Source: Proteobacteria bacterium UBA2383 (GTDB lineage: Bacteria > Pseudomonadota > Gammaproteobacteria > Competibacterales > Competibacteraceae). Taken from it: 64,000 nucleotides of DNA. The DNA lies in NCBI GenBank assembly GCA_002343485.1, contig DDST01000138.1, positions 53,082 through 117,081 on the forward strand, written 5' to 3'. Both the position numbers and the translations under genes were made by a program. The notes under the pieces were generated by a model, which made no database searches, was not told the origin of the DNA, and was given only the letters and a program-made list of their open reading frames with translations. Positions 5,601-54,000 of the stretch are shown here, piece after piece (positions within the stretch are counted from its first letter, which is position 1; every line of letters starts with the position of its first letter).

Positions 5601-6461
5601 TCAAGAGCCACACCGGTAACGGGTCTCGCCGGCATAGTATTCTGGAAAGCCGACGGCTGCTTTCAGCGCTTCGAAGTCCAGTACCTCAGGTGATTGACCC
5701 TCCTGCATTTGCGCTAGCGCGGTGCGCATGGCCTTGATTGACACGTTTAGCAAAGTCAGCGGATAGACAGCGATTTGATAGCCAATCGCTTGCAGTTGTT
5801 TGGGCGGTAACACCGGCGTCTTGCCAAACTCGATCAGGTTGGCCATTTTAGGGCCGGGAACTTCACTGCAATAGCGGCGCATTTCCACCTCACTTTCCGG
5901 GGCTTCCAGAAAAGTGATGTCGGCGCCTATCTCAGCAAAAGCACGGCATCGGGCAATGGCCTCATCCAGATCATTTGTGGCGCGAGCATCGGTGCGCGCC
6001 ATGATCAGGATATCGCTTCCTTCATTGCGAGTGTCTACCGCTGCTTGCAGGCGCATCAATGCCTCTTCGCGAGGAACCACGGCTTTACCTTGGGTGTGTC
6101 CGCAACGTTTGGGCATCACTTGGTCCTCAATCATCACGCAAGCAAAACCGGCGCGGGCATAGCCTTGCACCGTGCGCTTAACATTGAGCGGGTTGCCGAA
6201 GCCGGTATCACCATCGCCGATGATCGGGATGGAAACGGCGCTGCAGAGACTGCGGCCCTGATCAACCATTTCTCCATAGGAAATCAGGCCGGTATCAGGT
6301 AAGCCAAGCCGAGCGGCAGAGACTGCAAAACCGCTCATGAAAGCCAGTGGAAAACCTGCCTGTTCGATCAGCGTGGCTGATAGAGCATCGTGACAACCCG
6401 GCATTAGCAGCAAGCCGGGTTGGGCTAACAGAGTGCGTAATTGGTCAGCGGGAGTAGGCAT
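5601..6461 (-). CDS. isocitrate lyase/PEP mutase superfamily enzyme (2-methylisocitrate lyase / carboxyvinyl-carboxyphosphonate phosphorylmutase-like)
   Basis: 286 aa with superfamily hallmarks: IIGDGDTGFGN, VMIEDQVMPKRCGH, ILIMARTDA. Confidence 0.85.
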   Translation of the reverse strand: MPTPADQLRTLLAQPGLLLMPGCHDALSATLIEQAGFPLAFMSGFAVSAARLGLPDTGLISYGEMVDQGRSLCSAVSIPIIGDGDTGFGNPLNVKRTVQGYARAGFACVMIEDQVMPKRCGHTQGKAVVPREEALMRLQAAVDTRNEGSDILIMARTDARATNDLDEAIARCRAFAEIGADITFLEAPESEVEMRRYCSEVPGPKMANLIEFGKTPVLPPKQLQAIGYQIAVYPLTLLNVSIKAMRTALAQMQEGQSPEVLDFEALKAAVGFPEYYAGETRYRCGS

Positions 6462-6990: not shown

Positions 6991-7069
6991 TTTGAAAAAG
7001 ACAAGGTATGTGTTGGATATCTTCTAAATAACCAGATAGCCTGATAGGTAATAAGCCACTCAGTCTTGT

Positions 7070-7453
7070 TCAGCCCTCGGCTAAGGCTTTCTCAATCCGA
7101 TTCATCCAGATCAATGCTTCATCCTGGGTCAATAGCAGAATTTGTACTTGGTTGCGGAAATCCTGCCATGATTTTTCAACGTACTCACCGAAATTGTCTA
7201 CAGAAACTACGATCCAGTTCACCGGTGAGCCGGTGAGCTGGGTATTCTGCATGGATTTTGTCCCTTGTTGCAGGAACAGTAAATACGTGTCCAGCGATCG
7301 ACGGACTGAGCCAATTGCAGCGATGTTTATCAACCCGTTAATACGCAAAGCACACTGCCAAGCCAGTAGATTCACCGCTTGTTGACGTTCGAGCATTCTA
7401 TCGGTATTCATCATCCAATCCTCACTGCGTTTTCTTGTTGTGCATCGCAACAT
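7070..7453 (-). CDS. hypothetical protein
   Basis: 127-aa ORF (alternative start MMNTD at about 7414). No recognisable motif. It lies next to the IS relic. Confidence 0.35.
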   Translation of the reverse strand: MLRCTTRKRSEDWMMNTDRMLERQQAVNLLAWQCALRINGLINIAAIGSVRRSLDTYLLFLQQGTKSMQNTQLTGSPVNWIVVSVDNFGEYVEKSWQDFRNQVQILLLTQDEALIWMNRIEKALAEG

Positions 7454-7560
7454 AATTTATCGAAACCGTCAAGCAACATCGGTTTGGGCGGCTGTGGTAA
7501 CGGGTAAAGGTCAGTGCTGCGATCCCTGATCGCTAGCTGTATCGCATGGCAGCTAGATGT

Positions 7561-8355
7561 TCAAACTGCTACAGGTGCTTTAATCGCTGGATGATGCTGG
7601 TAGCCAATGATAGCGAAATCCTCATACTGATAATCAAACAGCGAATCCGGCCGCCGGTGGATCATTAATTGCGGTGCCGGGTATGGCTCGCGACTGAGTT
7701 GCAAACGAACCTGCTCCAGATGATTCGAGTACAGATGACAATCGCCACCGGTCCAGATGAATTCACCAACCGTTAAATCTGTTTGCTGGGCAACTAGATG
7801 GGTTAGCAATGCATAACTGGCAATATTGAACGGTACTCCCAAAAACAGGTCAGCGCTGCGCTGGTAGAGCTGGCAGGATAACGCACCGTTGGTGACATGG
7901 AACTGGAATAACAGATGACAGGGCGGTAGCCGCATTTGTTCAAGCTCTCCGACGTTCCAAGCGGAGACAACGATCCGCCGTGAATCCGGGTCACGACGCA
8001 GTCGTTCGATTGCATCAGCCAATTGGTCAATGCAACGCCCATCAGCGGTTCGCCAAGCGCGCCACTGCTGGCCGTAAATAGGTCCGAGATTGCCGTTTTG
8101 ATCGGCCCACTCATCCCAGATCGTCACACCATGCTCGTGCAAGTAATCAATATTGCTATCGCCGCGCAAAAACCACAGCAGTTCATAAATGATCGAGCGC
8201 AGGTGCAGCTTTTTAGTCGTGACTAATGGAAAGCCAGTGCGAAGATCGAAACGGAGCTGAGCGCCAAACCAGCTCAGTGTTCCAACCCCGGTTCGATCTT
8301 GTTTACGGACCCCTTCATTTAGTACCTGCTGCAATAAGTCCAGATATCCTTTCAT
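7561..8355 (-). CDS. thyA: thymidylate synthase
   Basis: 264 aa, full-length ThyA pattern: DRTGVGT, WDEWAD, LPPCH..FQF, and an end resembling ..AIKAPVAV. Confidence 0.97.
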
Positions 8356-8484
8356 CGTCAGAGATCTCGATCATCTGCTTTCCTAGCAAGACAGTGGAAT
8401 TTTATGGTGCAATGCAATATAGTCATCTCTATCCCATGATCATGAATAATAAAGTGACCACATAAGCAGGCCACAGGGTAACGC

Positions 8485-8802
8485 ATGACTGTCAAAGCAA
8501 CGTCCTCAATTCAGGTAATTACCCGATTAACTCTCATCCTGGATGCTATGGCCGCGCATGATGAGCCTGTCAGTCTCAAAACGCTGTCTAAGGCTACAGG
8601 CCTGCATCCCTCAACCACCTTCCGGATTTTGGCTTCTCTGACTGAACATGGTTTCGTAGAACGCAGCACAACAAGCCGTTACCGTTTAGGCATTCGATTG
8701 TTGCAACTGGGTAACCGGGTGCATGGGCAGATGATCGATCAGCATTCGGGCATCCATTCATTCTCCGCCGCACTTGATGAATTGAATGAAGCGAACGGCT
8801 GA
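8485..8802 (+). pseudogene. truncated IclR-family regulator (HTH domain only)
   Basis: 105 aa containing the IclR winged-HTH (LSLKTLSKATGLHPSTTFRILASLTEHGFVE) and linker. It stops about 20 residues into where the effector domain begins. Only 19 nt separate it from the convergent kinase gene end. Confidence 0.7.
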
Positions 8803-8821
8803 GGCGCATCTGGCCGCGCCT

Positions 8822-11548
8822 TTACCCGGCGCCTGGCAATTCCACAATAAACGTAGCGCCCTGCCCAGGCTCGCTCTCTACCCAGATGCGTCCATTATGG
8901 TGTTCGACAATCTTTTGACTGATAGGTAACCCCAAGCCGGTACCTTTGGGTTTGCCAGCGAGTGCGTTGCTCACCTGATGAAATTTCTCAAAGATCAGCT
9001 TGTGTTGATCAGAGGTAATACCCGGACCATTGTCGAGGACCTCGATGCGCCAGCGATTCATTAAACTCGGTTGTAAACGAATAGTGACTTCACCACTCTG
9101 TTCCGGGCAGAATTTCACCGCGTTCGATAGCAGATTGATAATGACCTGGGTTAAGCGATCGTGGTCGCCATCGATGATTACGGGAACATCCCCCAGATCC
9201 TCATGCAGCGCCACCGCTTTGTCGCAAAACAATTGGCTGGTGGAATTGATGGCATCTTGAATCAATGTACGAAGATCGACTTCGTCGACATGCCAGTCGA
9301 TTCGGCCAGAATCAATCTTAGCCATATCCAGCACCTGATTGATCAATCGGGTGAGTCGCTCGCTTTCCTTGACAATAATACTCAGGAACTTGCTGCGTTG
9401 CTCAACTTCCATGTCAGGGTTAGCCAGGAGGATTTCTGAGAAAGCGCGGATTGAAGTCAGAGGAGTGCGTAGTTCATGGGTCACGGTGGAGATGAATTCG
9501 TCCTTAAGGCGGTCGAGTTCTCGCAAGCGGTTATTCGCTTCACGCAGTTCAGCAGAGGTGGCTTCCAGTTCATGGGACTTTTGTTCCAGCCGGCGGCTGT
9601 ATTCGAGGACCTGTGTGCTCTCATCAAGGATCGTCATGACCTCTTCAATGCTGAGCACTTCGCCCATGACAATCGACGAGATCATCACCCGTGCAGACGC
9701 GGCGCCAATCGCTCCAGCCAGCAATCGCTCGGTGTAATGAATCAGCCGGGAATCCGCTTGCAATGGATAACCACTATGGTCATGGGCATAACGGTCGAAG
9801 GCCTCAGTCGCGCGTTGAGGGCCAAGAAACCGGGCCAGCAGATCATACAGCTCGGCTGTTTCTACCACACCCCGCCATAGCAGCGAATCACCGTCGTGGC
9901 GTTCACGTTTGAAGATATCAACGAACTGGCTGCCCTGTACTTGTTCGAGGGGATCTGGCTGGCTCAGCATTGAACCGAACACCAACCCGCCAATGTTAAG
10001 CAGCATGCTCCAGAACACTGAATGCATGTAGGGATCGAGATTCTCAAGACCAAATAGGGCATAAGGTTTGAGCAGCTCTAGGCCAAATGGGCCAATGTTG
10101 ACGAAATCAGCGCCGATCCAACCGGAGCGGGCCATGGCCGGCAGAAGCAGGGTATAGGCCCAGACTAGAAATCCCGCGCTCAATCCAATCAGCGCTCCTC
10201 GCCGGTTAGCACGCTTCCAGTACAAGCCAATCAGGATGGGCGGTGCGAACTGGGCGGCGGCGGCGAAAGAAACCAGGCCGCTGGCGACCAGCGCATAGGA
10301 TTCGCCAACAAACCGGAAATACAAGTACCCCAGCAGGATCAAGATCACGATGCCGGCACGCCGGATGCCCAGAAGTAGACCGGACCAGTCAGATCGTCTT
10401 GCCAGCCATCGCGGGTTAGCGCGCAGCAAGATCGGCATGACCAGATCATTGCAAACCATGGTGGACAGCGTGACAGTTTCAAACATGATCATGCTGGCGG
10501 CCGCTGACAATCCGCCCAGAAACACCAGCAGTGCCAGCATTGGCATCTGCTCAGCCATCGGCAGCGCTAGTACGAAGGTGTCTGCATCCACGCTGCCATT
10601 GCTGAACACTAAGCGCCCGCCCAAGGCAATAGGTAACACAAACAGGTTAATGGCGAACAGATAGAGAGGAAATAACCAGATCGCCTTGCGGATATGTGTC
10701 TCGTTGACATTTTCCACTACCAGCACCTGGAATTGCCGAGGCAGAAACAGAAATGCCATCATTGACAGGAAGGTTAATGACAACCAGCCGCCATAACCGC
10801 CGGGTACCACTTCAAAGCGCAGCAACGGCGCTAGATCTGGGTGTGCCGCCGCCTGCTGGAACAGATCGCCAGGACCGTCGAACAGCAGGAAAGTTACTAC
10901 GACGCCCACCAGCATGAAGGCTAGCAGTTTAAAAAGGGATTCGAAGGCGACCGCTGCTACCATCCCTTCGTGGCGCTCAGTGTTGTCGATGTGGCGGGTG
11001 CCAAACAGAATAGTGAACACGCTCAGCACCAGGGCCACGTAGAACGTGGTATCCATCCAAACCGGATGTTGCGTGGACACCGCTAGCCGGCTCACCTCCG
11101 GATATTGGCGCAGCAGGCTGAAACTGGCGGCAATGGCTTTCAGTTGAATCGAGATATAGGGCAGGATGCCGAGCATCACAATCAGCGTCACCATCCCAGC
11201 CAGCAGACCGCTTTTCCCGTAGCGGGAACCGATGAAATCAGCGATGGAGGTGATGCGATGCGCTTTGGTAATGCGTACGATGCGCCGTAGCACGAACCAG
11301 AACAACACTGCCATTAGCGTTGGTCCCAGATAGACCGGCAGGAAATCCACCCCGCTGACCGCCGCCAATCCGACACTGCCGTAAAATGTCCAGGCAGTAC
11401 AATAGATTGCTAGCGAGAGTGTATAAATATAGGGATTGGCAATGATCGAGCGGCCAGTATCGGCACGTTGGTCGCCATAATAGGCGATACCGAATAGCAC
11501 GCCCATGTAAGCGAAGGCGCTGGCGAGGATGATACTGTCGCTCATCAT
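8822..11548 (-). CDS. sensor histidine kinase with N-terminal sodium:solute symporter (SLC5/SSS) domain and STAC-like linker (CbrA/CrbS architecture, no receiver)
   Basis: 908 aa. About 560 aa of multi-TM symporter-like sequence. A soluble segment (..LYDLLARFLGPQRATEAFDRY..) resembles STAC. Then a coiled coil, HisKA STVTHELRTPLTSI, and HATPase (NLLSNAVKF, DNGPGI, GTGLGLPISQKIV). Confidence 0.9.
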   Translation of the reverse strand: MMSDSIILASAFAYMGVLFGIAYYGDQRADTGRSIIANPYIYTLSLAIYCTAWTFYGSVGLAAVSGVDFLPVYLGPTLMAVLFWFVLRRIVRITKAHRITSIADFIGSRYGKSGLLAGMVTLIVMLGILPYISIQLKAIAASFSLLRQYPEVSRLAVSTQHPVWMDTTFYVALVLSVFTILFGTRHIDNTERHEGMVAAVAFESLFKLLAFMLVGVVVTFLLFDGPGDLFQQAAAHPDLAPLLRFEVVPGGYGGWLSLTFLSMMAFLFLPRQFQVLVVENVNETHIRKAIWLFPLYLFAINLFVLPIALGGRLVFSNGSVDADTFVLALPMAEQMPMLALLVFLGGLSAAASMIMFETVTLSTMVCNDLVMPILLRANPRWLARRSDWSGLLLGIRRAGIVILILLGYLYFRFVGESYALVASGLVSFAAAAQFAPPILIGLYWKRANRRGALIGLSAGFLVWAYTLLLPAMARSGWIGADFVNIGPFGLELLKPYALFGLENLDPYMHSVFWSMLLNIGGLVFGSMLSQPDPLEQVQGSQFVDIFKRERHDGDSLLWRGVVETAELYDLLARFLGPQRATEAFDRYAHDHSGYPLQADSRLIHYTERLLAGAIGAASARVMISSIVMGEVLSIEEVMTILDESTQVLEYSRRLEQKSHELEATSAELREANNRLRELDRLKDEFISTVTHELRTPLTSIRAFSEILLANPDMEVEQRSKFLSIIVKESERLTRLINQVLDMAKIDSGRIDWHVDEVDLRTLIQDAINSTSQLFCDKAVALHEDLGDVPVIIDGDHDRLTQVIINLLSNAVKFCPEQSGEVTIRLQPSLMNRWRIEVLDNGPGITSDQHKLIFEKFHQVSNALAGKPKGTGLGLPISQKIVEHHNGRIWVESEPGQGATFIVELPGAG

Positions 11549-11842
11549 TCAAGAAGACTCCGGCGGGTCCTGCGCATCAGAAGCGCCACCTGGTCGAGAG
11601 AAACCCTGAGTGCGGGTCGCGCCAGACTTGGTGGATTCGGTGGGTTCCCGGATTTCTGAGCGTTGTACTACCAGGATCAATAGCACAATCAGTACGAACC
11701 AAATCAGATAGAGATAAAAATACAGTAACGGAATACCGAATGGCGCCCATGACCGGTCGAACAAATCCAGCACTGGATAATTGATCGCCAGAGCACCGCA
11801 GATGAATAGAATCGTGATGTATTCCCGGGATTGCTGCCGCAT
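11549..11842 (-). CDS. small two-TM membrane protein (resembles the small partners found upstream of SSS transporters, DUF3311-like)
   Basis: 97 aa with two hydrophobic helices and a polar tail. Its stop codon directly abuts the kinase start codon (11549 / 11548). Confidence 0.55.
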   Translation of the reverse strand: MRQQSREYITILFICGALAINYPVLDLFDRSWAPFGIPLLYFYLYLIWFVLIVLLILVVQRSEIREPTESTKSGATRTQGFSRPGGASDAQDPPESS

Positions 11843-11874
11843 TGGACTAGGGATTAGTAGTGAGTGTTAAGGGG

Positions 11875-13971
11875 TTAGAAGTTTGCTTGGGTCTTGCGGA
11901 TCTCCACCATCTTATCAGAGGCCTCCAGCGCTTGGCCGAGAGTCTTGACGCCTTGTGCTTCCAATAAATCGAGCAGCTTGAGAAAAACCTGTGCGGTGAC
12001 TAGCGAGTCACCCAGGGCAGTATGGCGGTCATGCACGTCTACTCCCAGGCGATCGGCAATGGCATCCAGGTTATGGTCGTCGGTGTAGTCATGCAAGTAA
12101 CCGGATAACAACAAAGTATCCAGTACCGGATTGCCGAAATAAATGCCAGCTTTCCGCTCTTTCATCTTAAGGAACTTCATATCAAAGGCAGCGTTGTGGG
12201 CAACCAGTACCGTTTGGTCGTCACCAACGAATTTGCGGAATTGCGGCAATACCACATCGATACCCGCCTTATCCTTGATCATGTCATCGGTAATGCCGTG
12301 AAAACGAATCGAGGCTTTGGGAATCGGCCGGCCGGGGTTGACCAACTGATCGAAGCTCTCGCCGGCCAGCAGCCGGCGGTTGACAATGCGTACTCCGGCG
12401 ATCTGGATAATTTCATCCCCCTTGGAAGGTGCCAAACCAGTGGTTTCGGTATCGAATACCACGTAAGTGAGCGCACTCAGCGGGTAGTTGAGCAGCTCAC
12501 CCCATTCCTCGCGGTGTTGGGCTAGGGAGAAATCATAGAATTCAGGCCGTTCCGGCAAGTTTTCTGGCGGCTCTTTCCATTGGCGCGTCGAATTTGGCAG
12601 CGGCAAACGCAGCAAGGCATATCCAGGCCGGCGGTGGGACTGGCTCCAGATATCGCTGTTGTGCCGGCGCAGGATTTCGCCTACGGTCGTTGCGCCCACG
12701 AGATCCTGCACATGTTCACTGAGCCAGCCTTCTAAATGATCGGCAGACAGCGGCTCTCCCGGCCAGATGATGTCCAGGTAGACATGCCGGTTGCCCAATA
12801 AACATTCGATCTCAAAGGTTGAGCTGATCCCATGAGTGTGCAAGTGATTGAGAGTGTGTTCTAGCAACAGCATGATCGAGTGGTTGTCGACATTGAGCCA
12901 TAGGGGCATGCCTACCATCTTCACGTGGAGGTCCGTGCGCTTGCTCATATGGTGGATCACACTGCCAATTAAGTCTGCAGAATAGACATCGTTCATTGGC
13001 CAGCGGTTGGCGTATAGCGTACGCAGTTCGAGAGCCAGTTCCTGCAAACGTTGGCTGAGCTGTTCGCTTTCTTCAACGATCACTCGCTGGAAGGTTTCAC
13101 GCTGCGGCTGATCCATACCCGCGAAGTTCATGATCATTTCCGCTGCCGCTCGCAGATTGGCCAATGGCCGGCGCAAGTCCTCGGTGCGAGTCTTGAGCAG
13201 GAAGCGATCAACCTGTTGCGTGACATCACGGAAGGTGATGACGAAGGCCGATGTGCGGTCCATGGCGCTTGGCAACAGGCTCATCCGGCAGTGGAGCAGG
13301 GTCCCATCATCTACTGTTGCACAGACAAATTCGGCATCGCTGGCTGGTTTGCCTTCCCCATTGCTCTGTTGGCGGTAATGTAGCAGTTGCAGGGTGCTTT
13401 CGATGGGAGCGCGGGTCCACAGAGCATAGAGGGAGCGGCCTAAGCCTAGCATCTCGCGGTTGGGCAGCAGTTTCGCTGCCGCTGCGTTGTAGAGCAGGAT
13501 GCGCGCGTCGCCATCGCAAACCAGCACGCCTTCTGATAATTCGCGCAAGACAGTTTCCAAGCGGGCTTTCTGCTCTTCGATCTCTTGGGTGCCCGTCGCG
13601 GCGGCGGCAGCAGCTTCGCGACGAGCTTTATGCAGAGCCTCGCCCAGTTCCAGCAGCATGGTGGGGAATTCGCCCAGCCAATGTTGTTTGGGCAGTTCCA
13701 GCATGTAACCGGGATTGCTGCGAGTGATGATCCGTGCACCGCGCGCCAGGGCGCCTAAGGGAATGAAACAGTGCCAGTCGAGGAGCGACCAGACTACCGT
13801 GGTGCCGCTGATAATAGCGAACGCAGCCAGAACCACCCAAAGCAGCAGCAACTCACGCTCGTCAGTTTCCGGAATCGTCTGGAAAATCTGCCAACCGATC
13901 CAAAGTAGCGAGACCAGCGTCAGTACCGCTGGAATCAGCCACAACAGCCAGAGCCGGGTCCGGTAGCGCAT
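11875..13971 (-). CDS. membrane-anchored PAS protein with degenerate histidine-kinase core fused to a DEDDh (DnaQ-like) 3'-5' exonuclease domain
   Basis: 698 aa with two N-terminal TM helices, a HAMP-like linker and PAS ([25 protein letters not shown]). The DHp-like segment reads RTEDLRRPL where kinases have SHELRTPL. The CA-like region lacks clear G1/G2 boxes. C-terminal Exo [11 protein letters not shown], Exo [15 protein letters not shown], Exo [17 protein letters not shown]. Confidence 0.85.
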
Positions 13972-13977
13972 GATGGT

Positions 13978-14358
13978 TCAGTCCGTTTCAGCGAGCAACT
14001 CACGAACCCGCTCCACCACCTCCTGAGTCGAGAAAGGTTTTGTGATGTAGTCATCCGCACCCAATGCTAATCCCTTTTCTTTTTCGACCTCACGTCCTTT
14101 GGCAGTTAGCATGATAATGCGAACACCAGCCCAGTCTGGATTGGCGCGAATCGCCTGACAGACTTCATAGCCATTCTTGCGAGGCATCATCACATCAAGC
14201 AACACCAGATCTGGCGGGTCGGCAAAGATAGCAGCCAGTGCCGCTTCGCCATCTGAGGCAGTCCGCACTTGGAAGCCCGCTTGCTTCATCAAAAACTCCA
14301 AGGACAGAACGATATTCGGTTCATCGTCCACCACTAGAATTTTGTTAGCCATATCCAC
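13978..14358 (-). CDS. single-domain (CheY-like) response regulator
   Basis: 126 aa. ILVVDDEP, DLVLLDVMMP, IIMLTAK and ITKPF are all present. No output domain. Confidence 0.9.
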   Translation of the reverse strand: MDMANKILVVDDEPNIVLSLEFLMKQAGFQVRTASDGEAALAAIFADPPDLVLLDVMMPRKNGYEVCQAIRANPDWAGVRIIMLTAKGREVEKEKGLALGADDYITKPFSTQEVVERVRELLAETD

Positions 14359-14393
14359 TCTCCCGGTCAGCGGGTTTACTCGCTCGGGCGATA

Positions 14394-14732
14394 TTATGCG
14401 GGTTTATCAGTACTGCTGTGTACCGTGTCTTTCTCACGCGGTTCCTGCGAGGAGTCGGTTTTGCGGTCTGCCACATCTTTGGCTGCAGTTGCCATATTCC
14501 CGCCGCTGGCCTTGGCGACCGCCTCCCAGAATTTCTGCACCATTTCCATCGAATGAAATTGAGTGGGTAACAACGGCTTGAATAAGCTCAGTGCGTCGAA
14601 GTTGATCGCACCGCGCTGCACGTTGTCACGGATCGTCTGCAAAATATCGTCGTGCAGAGGCTGAATGTTTGGCAGACCCAGAAACTCGCGCATTTCGTGG
14701 GCAGTGGCTTCAACGCTGACATTGACTTTCAT
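14394..14732 (-). CDS. hypothetical protein, first gene of the operon
   Basis: 112 aa with AAGGA 9 nt upstream of the ATG. Helical N-terminal ~75 aa and a polar tail. No motif I can name. Confidence 0.55.
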   Translation of the reverse strand: MKVNVSVEATAHEMREFLGLPNIQPLHDDILQTIRDNVQRGAINFDALSLFKPLLPTQFHSMEMVQKFWEAVAKASGGNMATAAKDVADRKTDSSQEPREKDTVHSSTDKPA

Positions 14733-14911
14733 CGAAAAAATCCTTGTACTTCAGGACTACAGATTTGACCACTGGCGCTGAGGCCGGGCCGCGAAATTTA
14801 AGGAATCGCCTAACCAATCAAGAATAGCAGGAATGACGCAGGTCTTGTGCGTCAGGTCGTGCTGCATGTTTCAAGCGAGGTGAAACTAATAGAAATCACT
14901 ATTTCGGGCAA

Positions 14912-16804
14912 CTACTCGCCAGTATTCTGGCGAGATGAGCGGCGTTTGAGATGAATCAACAGCAGGGAAACTGCAGCAGGAGTTACTCCCGGAACGCGAC
15001 CGGCCTGGCCCAAGGTCTGGGGCCGATGGCGGTCTAGCTTCTCTCGCACTTCCCGCGATAGACCATGAACTGCGGTATAGTCCAAATCGGCCGGAAGCAC
15101 CAGCTCTTCATGACGGCGCTGCCGTTCGATCTCTTCGCGTTGCCGCTCGATGTAGCCGGCATACTTGGCTTGAATTTCCACCTGCTCGGCGACCTGGGGA
15201 TCGGCGACGCTGGGACCGATGCCGGGTAGGCGCATTAATCCCGCATAACTGACTTCGGGCCGGCGTAGTAGCTCCGCAGCGCGACTTTCCCTCGCCAGCG
15301 GGCCTTGTAAGACCTGTTGTATGTCATTTTCAGTAAGTTGGCCCGGACGCACCCATAATGCACGTAACCGCTGATTTTCTTGCTCAATCGCTTCACGTTT
15401 GGTTTCGAATGCCTGCCAGCGTTCATCATCGACCAGTCCCAGCCGGCGTCCTATTTCAGTCAGACGCAAGTCGGCATTGTCCTCACGCAACAACAAGCGG
15501 TGTTCGGCGCGACTGGTAAACATCCGGTAGGGTTCCGTAGCGCCCCGGGTGACGAGATCATCGATCAAGACGCCGAGATAAGCCTCATCGCGATTCGGCC
15601 ACCATGGCGCTTCAGCGCGGACATACCGTCCAGCATTAATCCCGGCTAGCAAGCCTTGCGCAGCGGCTTCCTCATAACCCGTGGTGCCATTAATCTGCCC
15701 GGCGAAGAACAAACCTTGAACGGAGCGGGTTTGCAAAGAGTAGTCGAGATCACGCGGATCGAAAAAATCATATTCAATCGCATAGCCAGGCCGGGTGATA
15801 TGGGCATTCTCTAAGCCTTTCATCGAACGCACCAGTTGATATTGAATGTCAAACGGCAGGCTGGTGGAGATGCCATTGGGATAAAATTCGTGAGTCTGCA
15901 AACCTTCCGGCTCTAGAAAAATCTGATGGGAGTTCTTGCTGGCAAAGCGGTGAATTTTGTCCTCAATCGATGGGCAATAGCGTGGGCCAATACCTTCAAT
16001 CACCCCGGTGTACATCGGCGAGCGATCCAGACCGCTGCGAATGATGTCATGGGTTCGTTCATTGGTATGAGTGATCCAGCAGGAGATCTGCTGCGGGTGT
16101 TCAGCAACCGAGCCAAGATAAGAAAACACGGGACAGGGTTCATCGCCGGGCTGTTCAGTCAATTGTGTGAAATCAATGCTGAGCCCATCTAGCCGGGGTG
16201 GAGTACCCGTTTTGAGCCGGCCTGCACGCAAGGGTAATTCCCGCAAGCGTGCTGCTAAAGCGTTAGAAGGAGGGTCGCCGGCCCGGCCACCTTCGTAATT
16301 TGTCAGCCCGACATGAATGCGCCCGGCCAGAAACGTGCCTGCGGTTAGCACTACTGCCCTTGCGGCGAAACGGATGCCTGTTTGGGTGATAACTCCGGTA
16401 ACCCGGCTGCCTTCGACGATCAGATCAGCGGCGGCCTGCTGAAATACCCGCAGATGAGGTTGGTTTTCAATCAGCATTCGTACGGCTGACCGGTAGAGCG
16501 CCCGATCGGCCTGGCAACGGGTAGCACGTACCGCAGGTCCTTTGCGGCTGTTCAGAATACGGAATTGAATGCCTGCCTGGTCGGCAGCCCGTGCCATAAC
16601 GCCGCCGAGCGCATCAACTTCCTTGACCAGATGACCTTTACCAATACCACCAATCGCTGGGTTACAACTCATGGCGCCTACAGTTTCGATTGTATGGGTT
16701 AGCAGCAGAGTGTTTAGACCCATGCGCGCCGTGGCCATGCACGCTTCCGTACCTGCGTGGCCACCACCAATCACGATTACATCAAAAGTTTCAGAATAGT
16801 GCAT
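14912..16804 (-). CDS. mnmG: tRNA uridine 5-carboxymethylaminomethyl modification enzyme
   Basis: 630 aa. [18 protein letters not shown] motif and full-length GidA/MnmG pattern. Confidence 0.97.
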
Positions 16805-16971
16805 GAGATGAATAATGTAGGAATGAGAGTAAAGATTAGGATGTTAAGTTTGTTAATGCCTAAAAGGAATAAATATATAGATATCTATTTCTTTTGGATT
16901 TATAAGTACCCTGCTAAATTCTACAGCTAAACAGTCAGACATTCCGGCTCTTATTTTTCCAACCTGCCATC

Positions 16972-17727
16972 ATGACAAGGAACCCTAAGATGAATCCGGC
17001 ACAGACGCAGACTCTTTATCAACAGCCCGTCGATCAGCCGTGGTTCGATCTGGAAGCGATGAACCGTGAATTGGAAGCGGTGTCTGCCGAGCAGCGTGTG
17101 GCATGGGCGTTGGAAAATTTTTCCAGCCGGATCGTAATGACCTCCAGCTTTGGCGCACAGTCAGCGGTCTGTTTGCATATGGTCACCCAGCAATGGCCGG
17201 AAATTCCCGTTTTACTGGTCGATACCGGTTATCTGTTCCCGGAGACCTACCATTTTATTGACGAGTTGACCGAACGGTTGTCCCTTAATCTCCATATTCA
17301 CCGCGCCCAATACAGCCCGGCTTGGCAAGAGGCTCGTTACGGCAAGCTCTGGGAGCAGGGGGTAGAGGGGATCAATCGCTACAACCAGTTGAACAAAGTT
17401 GAACCGATGCAACGAGCGCTTCGCGATCTTGGTGTGGGAGCTTGGATTTCCGGTTTGCGGCGGCAGCAAGCCAAGAGCCGTCAGCATCTCGATGTACTGT
17501 TATGGCGTAATGGCCGCTGCAAAATTCACCCGGTGATCGATTGGACTGATCGCGACATTTACCGCTACCTTAGCAAATACGAACTGCCTTATCACCCGCT
17601 CTGGGAGCAAGGTTATGTCTCTATCGGTGATGTACATACTAGCCATCGGTTAGTGGATGGCATGAGCCCGGAAGATACCCGTTTTTTTGGTCTCAAACGC
17701 GAGTGCGGTTTGCACGAGCACGTTTAA
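16972..17727 (+). CDS. cysH: phosphoadenosine phosphosulfate (PAPS) reductase
   Basis: 251 aa. [10 protein letters not shown]-loop-like motif, C-terminal ECGLHE, no Fe-S cysteine cluster (PAPS rather than APS type). Confidence 0.92.
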
Positions 17728-25490: not shown

Positions 25491-28400
25491 ATGTTGTTGC
25501 AGTTGACAGCACGCGCCTTTCGACGGCGCGTACTCCGGCCAGCGGAAGGCGTGTTTCTCTTTCATCCCCGCATGTTGCAACGCCTAGTCCGCCGTCACTT
25601 GGGCAATGCGCTGAATGTGGCTATCCCGCCGCTGAACTACTATCTGATGCCGCGCGAGATTTTGCTCATCGGTCTGGAGGACGAGAACCCCGATGTGTTA
25701 CTGATCATTGAGGGACTCAATCTGCCTGCTTGGGTGATTCTTTTGCCTATGCCGTCAGCTCAAGAGTTGGCCACCGGTGATCCTGAGCGCTGGCTACGGG
25801 ATTACTGGGGGCGCCGGTTCGAAGCGGAGGTGGCACGTGCCTGGCAAACAGCACGCCACGATAATCAGGACCATCATGTGTTTGGCGCCCAAGGATTGAT
25901 TCAGCGGATAAGCGGGCCGGCATTTCGCGAAGCGCGAACCTTGCTCGAACAGGACCGGCGGGTGGTGTTGGGTTTGAATGACGAAACACTCTGCCAGCAA
26001 TTTGTTGGTTTCGTCACATATCTTCGCTATTTCGTCCCCGGTGCGCGGGGATATTTCTTTCCAGCTATTCAGGATTGGGACGGGCTGGATCGTTGGTTAA
26101 AAGACAGTGGTCTGGATCTACCGCCACCCCGGCACGGCAGCCGCTGGCCACATCTTCTGATCCGGAGCCGGCCATCCGGTTTCAACGGCACTCCCGATTA
26201 CGAGCCGGAACTACCACTCGATCTGCCTTTTGGCCGGAACGATCCCGATTTGGCCGGTGGCGCTAATACTATTCTGCCCTTACTAGCAAAAGCGCCTTCT
26301 GCTTTCAATAGGCAAACGCTTGCCGGAATAAGGCGAAATCGGGTAGTGGCAGAGAACGGGCGGATTGTCTTGCACTTTGAAACATGTTGTCAGGAAGCTT
26401 TGCAGCAAGCCTCTAGCTTGACTCGGAAATCCAGTGGATTGGTGCCGTTCTGGCACAATCTGATTGGGTATCTGACGCTGGTCATCATGCCACTGATCCC
26501 TCTGTTCGACCGATGGCCAGTTGCGTTTAGTCTCAAGGCAGTGGCAGAGGGAGTGTCTGCTATCCGCCTTCAGGGGTTTCGCCATCGCGTCCAAGCCGCT
26601 TTCAAGGCAGAGATGGCGGGTCACTATGGCGCAGCACTCCAGCATTTGTGCATGGCTGCCCATCTGTACCGGCAAATTATCAGCCGTGTGCTTCCTTCTA
26701 ACAATCCCCGGTCGAACGGAGAAGAAGGAGATACCGTCACATGGACTTTGTGGGAGCGTCAGGAAGAAATCATTGAAGCGCTGGCTCACAATCTTGCCGC
26801 AACGTGGAGGCTAGATTCCCAGTCTACCCGTGTGCTGGAGCATTTGATCCAGCGTTTGCTGGATGAGCCTGCTACGGCGGATTCATCCAGCCCATACTCC
26901 CGCCTATTGCACGGCTTGGAGAAAATTTTCCTGGAAGGACGGATGGACTGCTACCGGTTGCAACCATTTGTCTGGTTGTGGAGCGGGGGCCGGCAACCAC
27001 TGCGGTTGGGGTTGCCGTTTCAAGGTCCGCTCAAGGCATTGCGCACACTGAATGCTGCGAAAATCCGTCTTGATCAGTTGCCGTGGTCCGGGGCTGAGGT
27101 GGCCTACTTTGGTGCGCCTTTGCGAATCTTGGGCGGTCACATCAACCAACGGCTCCGCCAGCAGCTACAGCCGCGCTTGCATCATTTACTTAACGCTGCT
27201 GGTTTTATTCCCAATGATCTTCATCAGCAAGTTGCACAGAATGTTCTCCAGGAAGAATTATTCGAGATGATCCTGCAGCGCTGGCATTTACGCTTTACCG
27301 ATCTGCGCGATGCCGTGGCCCGGAATGAATTACGCTTGCCGGACGCAAAGTGGCGTGAGTTGCTGCTAGGGGACCGGTTGGCGCATTTTGATCGTCAGGC
27401 CAGCGCCGCACTGCCGGGGGTTTATCAACCTGGCGAGTTCTACCTGAAAGGTTTGCAGCAGTTGAGCGCCCCTTTGTTTGGCACAGCGGCTGGCCGATGG
27501 ATCACCCGCTTTTTGCTGTTACCGTTCGGCATCGCCTTCATTGGTCTGGAGGCGCTGAGTTATCTGCTAAGTGTGATGCCAACAGTGGCAGGTCCAGTAC
27601 GGCTGGTCAATCCGGGATCGGTGCTGGGAGCCGGCATGGGATTGATTGTTGTGCTCTACACTGACCGGGGACAGAGGGCGATCGCCGCTGTTGGCAGTGG
27701 TTACCGGTGGTTGTTTGCCGGATTCCTGCCCCAATATTTGGCGCGGTGGCTGCCTTGGGATCGGGCGACCCGCTGGTTTCGCTATCCCTTGGTTCAGAAA
27801 GGTTCCCGTTATCTGCTGGAGCCGCTATTGATTGGCCTGATTATCGCGCTGCCATTGATCGGTATCTCTGTTCTTTTAAAATTGAATATCAATGAGCTGC
27901 CGGCTTTCTTGCTCGCGATTGGCTTCGTTCTGGGCAATATTCTCCGCAACAGCCCATCCGGGCGCCAGATATTGGATGGCATTATTACCCGGTTCGTTAC
28001 CTTCTGGCGGCAGGTTCATCACACGTTGCTCGCCGGTTTAATTCATTGGGTGATCGACCTATTCAGCGGGTGGATGCATCGCATCGAACAGAGCCTGCAC
28101 CGGGTTGATGAAGTGGTGAGCCATCATCGTGATGAAAAGCAGAGCGTCACTATGATCAAAGCTATTATCGGGCCGATGTGGCAGGCGCTCAGCTATCTGA
28201 TCCATTTCTATACGGCTGTGCTGGTCGAGCCACAGGTCAATCCGATCAAACATTTCCCGGTTGTGATGGTAGCCGATAAGTTGATGATGCCGTTTTTTCC
28301 TGCGATGACGGTCGCATTGCTGGCGTTGTTAGACCCGATACTGCCAGGGGTCATCCGTTTACCGCTGGCGACGGTGACCGTGTTGTTGTCACCCGGTTTG

Positions 28401-28982
28401 TTTGGATTTCTGGGCTGGGAATTGAAGGAAAATTGGAAGCTGTATCATGCTAATCATCCTGATGGCGTACAACCGGCACATTTCGGGCCGCATGGAGAGA
28501 CGTTGTACACTTTGTTGCAACCCGGGTTTCATTCAGGGGCACTACCGCAGGCGTTCGCCGGACTCAGACAGGTGATCAGGCTGGAAAGCGAATATCAACG
28601 TCCTTATCCTCAACGCTTACGCCGAGCCGAAGCGCGCCTGAGCGGGATTCTGGAATCTTTCTATGTATTCGTAACCCGTGAATTAGAGTTTGTGCTCCTG
28701 GAGCGATGCCGGAGAGCGGGCTATGAGCAAGCTGAGGTGGCAGTGGTGAAATGGGCGGTAGCCACTGCTGCGCTCAATCTCCAGGTGGCGCTGTATCTCT
28801 TCGGTCAGGAACAGGCAGCGGGTGAACCTATTGTGCTCAGTCTCGATGGTGCTCTGCGGAGCGACGGTCTTGAGGGTACGATGACCTTGACAGGACCTGT
28901 CGAGTTACTGGGTGATGAGGGGGACATCTGGCTGAAAGCGGAAGCTGCACGCTTTCTGGAGCGGGCAGCCTGCAAGCATTGA
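25491..28982 (+). CDS. large (1163 aa) multi-pass membrane protein of unknown function
   Basis: Uninterrupted 3.5-kb frame, monocistronic. About 650 aa soluble N-terminal region, at least 7 hydrophobic helices between about residues 650 and 990, and about 160 aa soluble C-terminus. No catalytic or binding motif recognised. Confidence 0.8.
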   Translation: MLLQLTARAFRRRVLRPAEGVFLFHPRMLQRLVRRHLGNALNVAIPPLNYYLMPREILLIGLEDENPDVLLIIEGLNLPAWVILLPMPSAQELATGDPERWLRDYWGRRFEAEVARAWQTARHDNQDHHVFGAQGLIQRISGPAFREARTLLEQDRRVVLGLNDETLCQQFVGFVTYLRYFVPGARGYFFPAIQDWDGLDRWLKDSGLDLPPPRHGSRWPHLLIRSRPSGFNGTPDYEPELPLDLPFGRNDPDLAGGANTILPLLAKAPSAFNRQTLAGIRRNRVVAENGRIVLHFETCCQEALQQASSLTRKSSGLVPFWHNLIGYLTLVIMPLIPLFDRWPVAFSLKAVAEGVSAIRLQGFRHRVQAAFKAEMAGHYGAALQHLCMAAHLYRQIISRVLPSNNPRSNGEEGDTVTWTLWERQEEIIEALAHNLAATWRLDSQSTRVLEHLIQRLLDEPATADSSSPYSRLLHGLEKIFLEGRMDCYRLQPFVWLWSGGRQPLRLGLPFQGPLKALRTLNAAKIRLDQLPWSGAEVAYFGAPLRILGGHINQRLRQQLQPRLHHLLNAAGFIPNDLHQQVAQNVLQEELFEMILQRWHLRFTDLRDAVARNELRLPDAKWRELLLGDRLAHFDRQASAALPGVYQPGEFYLKGLQQLSAPLFGTAAGRWITRFLLLPFGIAFIGLEALSYLLSVMPTVAGPVRLVNPGSVLGAGMGLIVVLYTDRGQRAIAAVGSGYRWLFAGFLPQYLARWLPWDRATRWFRYPLVQKGSRYLLEPLLIGLIIALPLIGISVLLKLNINELPAFLLAIGFVLGNILRNSPSGRQILDGIITRFVTFWRQVHHTLLAGLIHWVIDLFSGWMHRIEQSLHRVDEVVSHHRDEKQSVTMIKAIIGPMWQALSYLIHFYTAVLVEPQVNPIKHFPVVMVADKLMMPFFPAMTVALLALLDPILPGVIRLPLATVTVLLSPGLFGFLGWELKENWKLYHANHPDGVQPAHFGPHGETLYTLLQPGFHSGALPQAFAGLRQVIRLESEYQRPYPQRLRRAEARLSGILESFYVFVTRELEFVLLERCRRAGYEQAEVAVVKWAVATAALNLQVALYLFGQEQAAGEPIVLSLDGALRSDGLEGTMTLTGPVELLGDEGDIWLKAEAARFLERAACKH

Positions 28983-29032: not shown

Positions 29033-31189
29033 TTAGTTTTTCGTAGTTTGTTGGTGGTGATGCAGCAACGCAGTAATTTGATCAACGGGCAAGGGCCGGC
29101 TCAAATAGTACCCTTGGATTTCATCACAATGTTTAGCCTTCAGAAAGCGCAATTGTGCCTCATTTTCCACGCCTTCCGCGATGACGCGCAGCCCCATGCT
29201 TCCGGCCATGGCGATCACCGCAGTGGTGATCGCGGCGTCATCGGGGCGGGTGTTGACCTCTTGCACAAATGCCTTATCAATCTTAAGGCGATCCAGCGGT
29301 AATTGTTTGAGCCGGCTTAGGCTGGAATAGCCGGTACCAAAATCATCAATGGCCAGTTGGACGCCCAGCATCTTGAGACTTTGCAGAGTACGGGTGGCGC
29401 CATCGGGGTCTTTCATCAGCAAGCTTTCAGTGATCTCAAGCTCCAGAGTATCCGCATCGAGACCGGTCTCTTCCAGGATCTGCGCGACCAGTTCCGGAAA
29501 ACCCGGCTGCATGAATTGCAGGACGGAGATATTGACCCCCATGCGTGACAAGCCACAGCCGGTATCCCGCCAGATACGGGCCTGCTGGCAGGCAGTGCGC
29601 AACACCCATTCACCGATCGGGATAATAAGCCCGGTTTCTTCAGCTAACGGAATGAAATCGGCGGGTGATATGGAACCCAGTAAGTGGCTTTGCCAGCGCA
29701 CCAGCGCCTCGACACCGCAAATCCGGCCGCTGAGCAAATCGAGTTGCGGCTGGTAGTGCAGGGACAGTTCGTGCCGTTCGATGGCCTTACGTAACTGGTT
29801 TTCCATCGCCAGGCGTTGGAGGGCGGTTTCGTTCAAAGAGATGTCGAAAAAATGATAAAGATTTCGTCCCTGTTGCTTGGCGGCATACATGGCCATGTCA
29901 GCGTTTTTGAGCAATGTTTCTGGATCGTTGCCATCATGGGGGAACACGGCAATGCCGATGCTGGGTGTAATGAAAACTTCATGAGTTTCGAGCACCACGG
30001 GCCGTGAAAGATCCATTTGGATGCGCTCGGCAACGATAGCGGCATCCTCGCAACGGCGAATTTCGGGGAGAAGCACCGTAAACTCGTCGCCCCCGAGCCG
30101 GGCGATATCGTACTCCATCTGCACGGTGTCATGTTCCAAGCTTGCAATGCTTTCGCGACCTACCGAATCGCTGGCGCGTAGGCTCTCTCTCAGGCGTTCT
30201 GCCGTTGCCTGAAGCAAGAGATCGCCAATGCGATGGCTGAGGGTGTCATTGATGCGCTTAAAGTGATCCAAATCGAGAAAGAGCAGGGCGAGTAAGCGCT
30301 CGTGCCGTTTCGCTAGCTTGATCGCTTCACCGAGGCGGTCCTTGAACAGCGCGCGATTGGGTAATTGGGTGAGACTGTCCGTGAAGGCCAGTTCACGGAT
30401 GCGTGCCTCTGCCTGACAAAGCTTAGTGATGTCCTGCAAAGTGCCATATAAGTGGAGAGGGCAATGATCGTTGCCAAACAGCGTCTCAACCTGCTGGCGA
30501 ACATGGCGCAAGACACCCCGGGCATCCAGAATCCGATAGTTGATTGCTTGAGAACTCCCGTGTTCACAAACGCGGGTAAACCACTGCCAGGCGTGAGATC
30601 GATCTTCCTCGTGAACGAAATTGAGAAGCACGGGCAAGGGGATATCAGGCGTTGCAGTGTCAAAACCCAGAACGGCGCACACTTCTGCTGAGAGATGGAG
30701 ATGTTCCTGTCCCCGGCTCCACCGCCAGTATCCTAGTCGCGCGATGCGTTGGGCATTGGCCAGTTGGCGCTCGCTCTCATGCAGACGAGACATCGCAGCA
30801 CTGGCCCGCAGCAGGTAACGCACCCGGTGTTTGAGCAAGGGGTAGCTGATCGGCTTAGTGATGAAGTCGGTGGCGCCGGCATTGAACGCCTGATCGATCG
30901 ACTCATGGTCATTTAGACCCGTCATCATCAGAATCGGCAGCAGTGCGCTATCTGGCCGCTGGCGTAGTTCAGCGCATGTGGCAAAGCCGTCCAATCCGGG
31001 CATCATCACATCCATGATGACCAGATCGGGAGCAGTGGCCTCGAAGACCGCTAGCGCCTGCCGGCCACTCTGTGCTTGTTCGACATGAAATCCAGCTTTT
31101 TCAAGTGCCATACTTACCAGAGAGCGAACCAAATCGTCGTCGTCGACCACCAGAATCTTGGTGAGCAAGGAAGAGGAAGCAGCATTCAT
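29033..31189 (-). CDS. response regulator with PAS-GGDEF-EAL output
   Basis: 718 aa. REC (ILVVDDDD, DLVIMDVMMP, ITKP), PAS, GGDEF intact (RLGGDEFTVLL), EAL intact (EALVRW, DDFGTGYSS). Confidence 0.9.
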   Translation of the reverse strand: MNAASSSLLTKILVVDDDDLVRSLVSMALEKAGFHVEQAQSGRQALAVFEATAPDLVIMDVMMPGLDGFATCAELRQRPDSALLPILMMTGLNDHESIDQAFNAGATDFITKPISYPLLKHRVRYLLRASAAMSRLHESERQLANAQRIARLGYWRWSRGQEHLHLSAEVCAVLGFDTATPDIPLPVLLNFVHEEDRSHAWQWFTRVCEHGSSQAINYRILDARGVLRHVRQQVETLFGNDHCPLHLYGTLQDITKLCQAEARIRELAFTDSLTQLPNRALFKDRLGEAIKLAKRHERLLALLFLDLDHFKRINDTLSHRIGDLLLQATAERLRESLRASDSVGRESIASLEHDTVQMEYDIARLGGDEFTVLLPEIRRCEDAAIVAERIQMDLSRPVVLETHEVFITPSIGIAVFPHDGNDPETLLKNADMAMYAAKQQGRNLYHFFDISLNETALQRLAMENQLRKAIERHELSLHYQPQLDLLSGRICGVEALVRWQSHLLGSISPADFIPLAEETGLIIPIGEWVLRTACQQARIWRDTGCGLSRMGVNISVLQFMQPGFPELVAQILEETGLDADTLELEITESLLMKDPDGATRTLQSLKMLGVQLAIDDFGTGYSSLSRLKQLPLDRLKIDKAFVQEVNTRPDDAAITTAVIAMAGSMGLRVIAEGVENEAQLRFLKAKHCDEIQGYYLSRPLPVDQITALLHHHQQTTKN

Positions 31190-31231
31190 GTGGGAGAGAG
31201 GACCTTGGCTACCTAGAGGCGTAATAGAATG

Positions 31232-34200: not shown

Positions 34201-34834
34201 TCTCGCCGGTCAGCAAGTAGTCGCGCAGATTGGCCGCAGCGTTGTTAGCGCTGCCTTGAGCGTGAGCGAGGATAAATGGGAGTTCTCCATGTGATGCATT
34301 GGTTTCCCGATGCCGCTCCAGATCGATCAGATGGGTCAAACTGTTCGAGAGGATTGAGGAGAGCGGTGCCGCTTGCTCGGTTAGCAACTGCACAGCGGGA
34401 ATATTGTCTGGCGTCCAGGCAATGTCTTCGATCGCCTGCTGATGAGCCAGGGCATCGGTCAGAAGCTGTTCGATGCGGGCTAAATCCGCTGCTGGCGGAT
34501 TCAGTGGATTTGACGGGGTTGCTGTCTGGGTCTTGAGTTGAGCGAGGGCTGGCAGGATCTCTTGCTCAATGGCCGTGCGCCGTTCTGTGCGGAATTGAGG
34601 ATCGCCAAGCAGCATCCAACCGCGCAGTGCGGCTTGGGAATGTTCGAGTCCGCCCAATATGCGCAGACTCGCCAAGGCCATCGGTGTGACGTGGCGAGTG
34701 ACCTCTTCCGTCGCCCCAAGATTCTGCTTGACCATGATCAGGGTAAAGGTACCGGTCACGGTGATGGTGAGAAACATCAAAGCCAAGCCGATATTTAGCT
34801 TTGCTCGTAGGGACCAGCTTTTGAGAGGACGCAT
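31232..34834 (-). CDS. hybrid sensor histidine kinase (periplasmic/4-helix sensor, HAMP, PAS, HisKA-HATPase, two receivers, HPt)
   Basis: 1200 aa. [13 protein letters not shown]-box, [27 protein letters not shown]. Two REC domains (VLVVDDN.., [17 protein letters not shown]). C-terminal HPt ([13 protein letters not shown]). Confidence 0.9.
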
Positions 34835-53487: not shown

Positions 53488-53539
53488 TCCTGTATCCCTA
53501 CGTTAATCTTTGAATAGCATACCGGAATTGTGAACTGTC

Positions 53540-53995: not shown

Positions 53996-54000
53996 ATGAC

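Follow-up and report, generated by a model that had tools for sequence, protein, structure and literature searches.

The window analysed here, a stretch of 64,000 nucleotides from contig DDST01000138.1 of Proteobacteria bacterium UBA2383 (Competibacteraceae), carries on its minus strand a two-component signalling locus in which a sensor pseudokinase is fused to a predicted exonuclease (Table 1). Five co-directional open reading frames (ORFs) encode, in the direction of transcription, a hypothetical protein, a stand-alone receiver of response regulator type (RR), the pseudokinase-exonuclease fusion (EXO), a mini-protein with two transmembrane (TM) helices and a histidine kinase (HK) with an SLC5 (sodium:solute symporter-like) sensor and a STAC domain. 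The gaps between them are 35, 6, 32 and 0 nt from 5' to 3' along the operon, just as an earlier interpretation made from the letters of the window (the sequence-only reading) had listed them. The operon is flanked by mnmG upstream and, downstream, by a 105-amino-acid ORF encoding an IclR-type helix-turn-helix (HTH) alone and by thyA. That reading had proposed a phosphorelay from the kinase to the receiver, which would then control the pseudokinase-nuclease, giving a two-component pathway that ends in nucleic acid degradation rather than in transcription.

Table 1. Genes of the signalling locus and domain structure of the two largest products (positions in the window; aa, amino acids).
Feature	Positions	Strand	Basis
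Hypothetical protein, 112 aa	14394..14732	minus	ORF list; sub-threshold DUF6489
Stand-alone receiver (RR), 126 aa	13978..14358	minus	PF00072; PhoB/OmpR-like receiver type
TM-PAS-pseudokinase-DEDDh exonuclease fusion (EXO), 698 aa	11875..13971	minus	Pfam, AlphaFold2, BLASTP
EXO residues 1–144: two TM helices, very short outside loop, helical HAMP-like/signalling-helix segment	13540..13971	minus	AlphaFold2, Foldseek
EXO residues 145–255: cytoplasmic PAS	13207..13539	minus	PAS_4, E 1.4e-7
EXO residues 256–460: pseudokinase core (His-less DHp hairpin and CA-like domain)	12592..13206	minus	BLASTP, AlphaFold2
EXO residues 461–486: low-confidence linker with motif RPEFYDF(D/S)L	12514..12591	minus	pLDDT, conservation
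EXO residues 487–698 and stop: DEDDh (DnaQ/epsilon-type) 3'-5' exonuclease domain	11875..12513	minus	RNase_T, TIGR00573
Two-TM mini-protein, 97 aa	11549..11842	minus	ORF; conserved motifs
SLC5-STAC histidine kinase (HK), 908 aa	8822..11548	minus	PF00474, HisKA, HATPase_c
HK residues 1–626: SLC5 sensor and STAC	9671..11548	minus	PF00474, CbrA match
HK residues 675–908 and stop: HisKA/HATPase_c transmitter	8822..9526	minus	HisKA E 2e-19, HATPase_c E 2e-31

The 698-amino-acid fusion protein was modelled with AlphaFold2 on 35 diverse relatives (mean predicted local distance difference test score, pLDDT, 82.9), and conservation in its family was scored on 35 diverse members of 31–56% identity. In the model, N-terminal helices at residues 3–32, 36–84 and 102–144 are followed by the PAS domain (148–255), two DHp helices (260–282 and 288–323), a CA-like alpha/beta domain (327–460) and the exonuclease (487–697), with a linker that is disordered between residues 465 and 480 (pLDDT < 50). 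Foldseek aligned the N-terminal 460 residues with full-length sensor kinases, WalK being the top match (model 9a5d, 463 columns) and VicK, YF1 and ThkA following. The sequence-only reading had described the protein as a TM-HAMP-PAS-degenerate kinase-exonuclease fusion, and the TM, PAS, degenerate kinase and DEDDh parts of this description stand; the HAMP segment is backed by the predicted structure and not by Pfam, which detects HAMP in one of the 35 relatives, the window protein not among them. Pfam places the PAS domain at residues 137–254 and detects PAS in 29 of the 35 relatives; C152 is near-invariant and N162 invariant in the family.

Residues 189–450 of the fusion match the DHp/CA core of the 908-amino-acid kinase encoded at the same locus (BLASTP, E 1e-10). 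The position of the phospho-acceptor histidine is occupied by Glu in the window protein and by E, D, Q, N or R across the 35 family members, with His in none. The ATP boxes are degenerate, G1 being replaced by D..W.G and G2 lost, and Pfam detects HATPase_c in 0/35 and HisKA in 4/35. The canonical HisKA phosphatase motif (T or N at H+4) was never seen in the pseudokinase of these 35 members, which makes a dedicated phosphatase role unlikely. The C-terminal domain matches RNase_T over residues 504–663 (E 3e-36; 125.8 bits against a cut-off of 24) and TIGR00573 with 111.2 bits against a curated cut-off of 71.5, and its catalytic residues D507, E509, D597, H650 and D655 are invariant in the 35 members. 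Its closest solved relatives are the PolC exonuclease domain 2p1j by sequence (E 8e-30) and PolC 9qrn by Foldseek (root-mean-square deviation 1.5 Å, 34% identity), with further Foldseek matches to DinG-N, epsilon and ExoX. By sequence and fold the domain is a genuine DEDDh member that is predicted to be catalytically intact, and the objection that the exonuclease might be inactive does not apply at this level. The fold and the complete DEDDh set are shared with PolC, DnaQ (epsilon), DinG-N and Cas2-DEDDh proteins, but the nuclease of the fusion is not joined to a polymerase, a helicase or Cas2. In the linker, R475 and P476 are nearly invariant. Because the histidine and the ATP boxes have been lost family-wide while the DEDDh residues are invariant, the 698-amino-acid protein is best described as a conserved pseudokinase bearing a nuclease that appears to be under selection for catalysis.

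The identification of the kinase as an SLC5(SSS)-STAC histidine kinase was borne out by PF00474 and by comparison with CbrA, for which a cryo-EM chain (10ed_A) is available. This chain was matched by phmmer over residues 6–473 of the kinase (E 3.5e-69) and by the family profile over residues 6–626 (to 9–588 of the chain, E 2e-97), spanning SLC5 and STAC; the STAC region, which is without a dedicated Pfam match, follows SLC5 in an alignment that runs unbroken through 10ed_A residues 505–588. H691, N805/N809, D839-G841-G843 and G869-G871-G873 are invariant in 12 kinase orthologues, so that the transmitter is predicted to have its H, N, G1 and G2 boxes intact, and the closest solved transmitter core is that of HK853 (E 7e-43; 9e-61 with the family profile). 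Neither a PAS nor a receiver domain was found in the 908 residues, the Pfam HATPase_c match ending at residue 905; by its architecture the protein is classed as a member of the SLC5/STAC family and not as a CrbS-type hybrid.

The 126-amino-acid protein had been read as a CheY-like receiver without an output domain, and PF00072 indeed covers residues 7–119 (E 2e-30) and leaves no room for one. In NCBIfam the receiver halves of YycF/PhoB score best; among 46 orthologues, conservation of D11, D12, D55 and K107 is 95% or higher, and identity across phyla, with a median of 63%, is unusually high. These residues mark it as a bare receiver that should be phosphorylatable, and the combination of an intact HK853-like kinase with a PhoB-type receiver suggests that the two are cognate.

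At 52 loci a homologue of the 97-amino-acid protein is encoded ahead of the kinase, the modal spacing being 0–4 nt, and in the window no nucleotide separates its stop codon from the start codon of the kinase. The family has conserved NYPLL, GIP and W motifs. The window protein has no Pfam or NCBIfam match, DUF3311 being detected weakly in 2 of 17 members, and a search of the PDB returned nothing at E ≤ 10, thus nothing to CbrX, which is expected to be in the PDB. CbrX, whose translation is coupled to that of CbrA, binds the CbrA SLC5 domain in a stable complex (PMC6591292, PMC13488458). By analogy, the 97-amino-acid protein is probably a small, translationally coupled subunit that accompanies the SLC5 sensor domain in the membrane.

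A scan of one genome per species gave 80 loci, or 160 related loci together with a metagenome scan; one of the 80 (L001) is 99% identical to the window. The fusion family comprises 980 representatives at E < 1e-30, with more than 150 full-length representatives of 50%-identity clusters. Hosts among the 80 loci belong to about eight phyla or more and include Competibacteraceae, Rhodospirillales, Magnetococcales, Rhodocyclales (Azonexus, Zoogloea, Dechloromonas, Accumulibacter), Burkholderiales, Pseudomonas, Nitrospirota, Desulfobulbales, Acidobacteriota, Actinomycetota and Chloroflexi. Four of the genes recur in two orders, RR-EXO-small ORF-HK and small ORF-HK-RR-EXO. At 67 of the 78 genome loci on which this was counted, the gene next upstream of EXO is the RR, and an SLC5-STAC kinase is present in 43 of the 53 that have at least 4.5 kb on both flanks. 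RR and EXO are the tightest pair of the cassette, with gaps clustering at −4 to +9 nt and reading frames that often overlap.

Independent annotations of the Prokaryotic Genome Annotation Pipeline (PGAP) are in agreement. On plasmid 1 of Paracoccus denitrificans PD1222 (L161, PDEN_RS25395-25415) the order is DUF294-small ORF-'ATP-binding protein' (the HK)-RR-exonuclease domain protein, with cassette genes overlapping by 4–11 nt, and in Marivivens it is acs-DUF4212-SSF-DUF294-hypothetical protein-RR-exonuclease. Elsewhere on the PD1222 plasmid there is another match to the fusion protein.

The co-occurrence in related genomes on which the sequence-only reading depended is therefore found, and for the four-gene core its idea of a conserved unit holds. 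The 112-amino-acid gene falls outside it. This gene is present only in L001–L007 and L101 of the 160 related loci (Competibacteraceae and closest relatives), its product has just 171 homologues, all from Competibacteraceae-type sources, and the DUF6489 match (E 0.001) is under the cut-off; it is a lineage-specific upstream gene. As that reading had also stated, no DNA-binding regulator is encoded in the cassette, the 126-amino-acid receiver being the only regulator there. DNA-binding response regulators are seldom found nearby either, very few of the 160 related loci having a LuxR-type regulator near the cassette; a distant partner is possible.

Because the association recurs in two gene orders across about eight phyla, it is far beyond chance; the genes are tightly coupled and have been so since ancient times, and the four very probably form one functional system. 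The simplest challenge to this is that the neighbourhood is incidental and the 698-amino-acid protein a generic DNA repair or proofreading exonuclease, as its nearest solved nuclease relatives (PolC, epsilon, DinG-N and ExoX) might imply. Such a protein would not be expected to share overlapping frames with the same partners in both orders and across so many phyla, or to be always membrane-anchored and fused to sensor modules, and the 25–60% identities argue against a single, recently transferred island. The comparative data effectively refute this explanation, which we regard as scarcely tenable.

The fusion family has three architectures, all with two TM helices, the RPEFYDF linker and the nuclease: a minimal TM-Exo form of about 300 amino acids, a TM-HAMP-PAS-Exo form of about 490 from which DHp and CA are cleanly deleted, and the long form of about 700. 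In every one of them the nuclease is tethered to the membrane and preceded by the RPEFYDF motif. In the metagenome scan, neither RR nor HK was found at any of the three independent short-form loci with enough upstream sequence (L082, L083, of which L085 is a duplicate, and L092), by comparison with an RR at 31 of 40 long-form loci; Fisher's test for RR absence gives p of about 0.005 with the duplicate counted and about 0.007, calculated by hand, without it, kinship being ignored in both. Minimal forms lie near DUF294 and SSF genes, and RR and HK were not found there. Since the short forms without DHp/CA have no RR, these counts suggest that the receiver tracks the pseudokinase module, as expected if the receiver docks on DHp/CA. 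Fusion proteins of RR-less loci are more divergent in every region, the nuclease included, which confounds a comparison of their DHp conservation with that of RR-linked loci.

This disappearance of the RR along with the pseudokinase module bears on a second explanation, in which the pseudokinase-exonuclease is an upstream co-sensor or scaffold, its TM/PAS/DHp module pairing with the SLC5-STAC kinase by binding or heterodimerisation and altering the kinase or phosphatase activity on the receiver, the target of the receiver lies elsewhere (DUF294, a transporter or a distant protein) and the nuclease is not phospho-regulated. A co-sensor would suit the TM region of the fusion, which has almost no periplasmic loop, as is typical of sensors dependent on a membrane partner, and the homology of the pseudokinase DHp to that of the kinase. 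The receiver, with its median of 63%, is also far more conserved than the N-terminal part of the pseudokinase (25–45%), which suggests several partners, and at one locus (L020) a second receiver paralogue stands directly upstream of DUF294. For a co-sensor of that kinase, however, both the loss of the RR with the module and the retention of the RR-EXO pair after loss of the kinase, seen at six loci (L013, L021, L028, L029, L036 and L037) and in Marivivens, are unexpected; further, the invariant DEDDh residues indicate that nuclease activity is itself under selection. We consider a purely upstream role of this kind rather unlikely.

Recurrent partners of the cassette were found by clustering all ORFs neighbouring the loci. 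The commonest extra partner, which the sequence-only reading had missed, is a CBS-DUF294 nucleotidyltransferase near EXO at 52 of the 80 loci; it lies beside the cassette in P. denitrificans and Marivivens and near variants in Thalassospiraceae. A DUF4212 and SSF transporter pair occurs at 33/80 loci and acetyl-CoA synthetase (acs) at 18/80, and DUF485 is also recurrent. A link between DnaQ-like exonuclease genes and acs-acetate permease loci, which that reading had put forward, is thus seen in related loci and has been published for Pseudomonas (PMC9927547). The Pseudomonas operon PP_0354-PP_0353, encoding a cNMP-CBS-DUF294 protein and an RNase_T exonuclease, is among the strongest CrbS/R-dependent targets (PMC9927547; PMC5715377; bioRxiv 10.64898/2026.09.07.749794), with mild propionate and pyruvate phenotypes only and without assigned function (PMC9927547). 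Our literature searches on DUF294 found no functional study. A query with the minimal variant for relatives of PP_0353/PA3232 type returned only Rhodospirillales-type proteins, and the window nuclease scores 84 bits against NF006601 (PRK09145), below the 189-bit cut-off.

Given the prevalence of DUF294, the exonuclease and this nucleotidyltransferase could instead be an autonomous pair, one removing and the other adding nucleotides on a common substrate, with the two-component genes merely co-located in a neighbourhood for carboxylate assimilation and the receiver serving as a phosphate sink or a connector to an unlinked regulator. DUF294 accompanies the minimal TM-Exo and short PAS-Exo forms that have no RR or HK, Exo-DUF294 fusions exist, and the Pseudomonas pair is an operon under CrbS/R transcriptional control (PMC9927547). 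By contrast, no DUF294 is within reach of the cassette in the window or at other Competibacteraceae loci, the start/stop overlaps of RR and EXO and the retained His-less DHp are hard to explain by co-location, and the tracking of the pseudokinase module by the RR points the same way. An autonomous pair is in our estimation improbable.

Several observations were made on these partners in individual loci. A 715-amino-acid Exo-CBS-DUF294 fusion is encoded at L030 (4775–6922), with the Exo motif III reading SAPGD instead of H..GD, and a 1154-amino-acid PAS...Exo-CBS-DUF294 fusion was found as P0182. The second receiver copy of L020, a Thiodiazotropha metagenome-assembled genome, lies at 13172–13546 and is 61% identical to that of the window, and the other copy stands ahead of the small ORF and kinase. 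In Rhodocyclales loci (L045, at 15061–15714, L050, L054, L061, L065, L071 and L073) a protein of about 217 amino acids, 'c19', is encoded between DUF294 and the SSF transporter; it has no Pfam or NCBIfam match, and the idea that it is a degenerate exonuclease was rejected as it has no significant similarity to the exonuclease domain.

The chain from kinase to receiver to pseudokinase-nuclease fits all the comparative evidence, and we would put its chances of being correct at about even. In this pathway the SLC5 domain would sense a short-chain carboxylate, acetate being the likeliest, by its availability or its flux, and the 908-amino-acid kinase would phosphorylate the receiver at D55. The phospho-receiver would dock on the His-less DHp bundle of a pseudokinase dimer, after the manner of DivK~P on DivL, and docking would switch the activity or access of the C-terminal exonuclease via the conserved RPEFYDF linker, with the PAS domain providing a second, cytoplasmic input. 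The nuclease would work at the membrane on a 3'-end-bearing substrate common to the DUF294 nucleotidyltransferase, so that carboxylate assimilation would be tuned post-transcriptionally and not via a DNA-binding regulator. The step of phospho-RR control over the pseudokinase-nuclease is supported only indirectly, by the overlap of the RR and EXO genes and by the absence of the RR from variants without the module (n = 3).

A number of findings weigh against this pathway. The comparison with short variants involves three independent loci and statistics that ignore kinship, and there is no HK within reach at 10 of the 53 well-flanked loci and no RR at 11 of 78, with the pseudokinase region still kept. 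At the DHp specificity positions the real kinase and the pseudokinase both have the generic HisKA pattern, with Ala at the equivalent of HK853 A271, a pattern that does not discriminate between them. The likeness of fold to DNA-proofreading exonucleases leaves the substrate of the nuclease unspecified. DUF294, the DUF4212/SSF transporter, acs and DUF485 are all absent from the 64-kb window, and most close relatives are likewise without a DUF294, acs or SSF transporter gene near the cassette; the acetate link for the window organism is by extension from relatives only. Finally, deletion of the stand-alone exonuclease of P. putida, a possible orthologue of the present domain, gave only mild phenotypes (PMC9927547).

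A more specific and distinctly doubtful version of the pathway would make the DEDDh domain and DUF294 a membrane writer/eraser pair, trimming and adding nucleotides at a 3'-OH-type acceptor, with the eraser gated by the SLC5-STAC kinase and receiver through the pseudokinase, so that carboxylate assimilation would be controlled by regulated trimming of nucleotides and not at transcription. Conceivable acceptors are a regulatory RNA or DNA 3' end, a short oligonucleotide that serves as a signal, and a protein or metabolite carrying a nucleotidyl group.

Comparison with known systems places the cassette as an undescribed branch of SLC5/STAC two-component signalling. Besides the CbrA and CrbS systems, RpuS/R has been characterised as a third (PMC9100948), and the kinases of these systems have the DNA-binding partners CbrB, CrbR and RpuR, of a kind that the cassette does not contain. 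CbrA/CbrX-CbrB of Pseudomonas resembles it in combining SLC5, STAC and HisKA/HATPase domains and in having a small hydrophobic, coupled ORF just upstream of the kinase gene. It differs in that the 908-amino-acid kinase has no PAS between STAC and transmitter, in that the partner is a 126-amino-acid bare receiver whereas CbrB is an NtrC-type activator, and in the small ORF, which here encodes two TM helices without detectable similarity to the PDB. The ligand is probably also different, a carboxylate here, to judge from gene context, and histidine for CbrA. CrbS/CrbR (MxtR/ErdR) is likewise an SLC5/STAC kinase system linked to acs, acetate/pyruvate transporters, DUF294 and a DEDDh exonuclease; that link, however, is transcriptional, via the LuxR-type CrbR, and CrbS, unlike the kinase described here, is of hybrid type and carries a receiver domain. 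By comparison with PP_0353, the exonuclease of the cassette is fused to a sensor pseudokinase and tied to a bare receiver gene.

For the proposed reading of a receiver by a pseudokinase, the nearest likeness is DivK-DivL of Caulobacter, in which a His-less PAS-DHp-CA scaffold is paired with a stand-alone receiver; the DivL kinase core (4q20) is among the solved relatives of the 908-amino-acid kinase family. DivL has Tyr at the His position and a recognisable CA and signals to CckA, whereas the fusion has mostly Glu or Asp at that position, a degenerate CA and an enzymatic domain of its own. HK853-RR468 of Thermotoga maritima offers the closest solved transmitter core, again with a stand-alone receiver as partner, but HK853 lacks an SLC5/STAC sensor and is not known to have a pseudokinase-nuclease partner.

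The known end points of two-component pathways are transcription factors, cyclic-di-GMP enzymes, methylesterases and protein partners. In our literature searches the fused cassette was not found described, the nearest case being the CrbS/R-controlled DUF294-exonuclease operon of Pseudomonas, and no two-component pathway came up with a proofreading-type exonuclease as dedicated effector read via a pseudokinase. On the proposed reading, the output of the pathway is read through a pseudokinase and is nucleolytic instead of transcriptional. The cassette is widespread; it occurs in acetate-storing organisms of wastewater phosphorus and carbon removal (Competibacter, Accumulibacter, Dechloromonas and Zoogloea) and in the genetic model organisms P. 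denitrificans and Cupriavidus necator, and the fused, receiver-coupled form gives handles on the DUF294-exonuclease pair in D55, the His-less DHp and the DEDDh residues.

An anti-phage defence role was also considered and dropped, as the PADLOC matches were to a generic DEDDh domain and receiver only and the context is metabolic. A scan of window positions 7000–17000 with Rfam gave no RNA element match at E ≤ 1, and promoter and terminator counts were close to shuffled expectation; a single weak −35/−10 match, ending just past the stop codon of the 112-amino-acid gene, was given no weight.

Elsewhere in the window there are further signalling genes without a DNA-binding output, namely a CHASE5-PAS kinase followed by two receiver proteins (51691–54876, plus strand) and a REC-PAS-GGDEF-EAL protein adjoining a HAMP-PAS-HisKA-HATPase-REC-Hpt hybrid kinase (29033–34834, minus strand). 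An ORF of 1163 amino acids at 25491–28982 (plus strand) has no Pfam match at E ≤ 1e-5. About 2.4 kb past the 3' end of the kinase gene, beyond thyA, lies a gene for a PEP-mutase/isocitrate-lyase-family protein (5601–6461, minus strand; PF13714, E 3.5e-43). The 105-amino-acid HTH ORF downstream of the operon (8485–8802, plus strand; PF09339, E 3e-15) has no effector-binding domain and is convergent with the kinase gene, with 19 nt between its end and the stop codon of that gene; its product may be either an IclR regulator that has been truncated or a small protein of HTH type.

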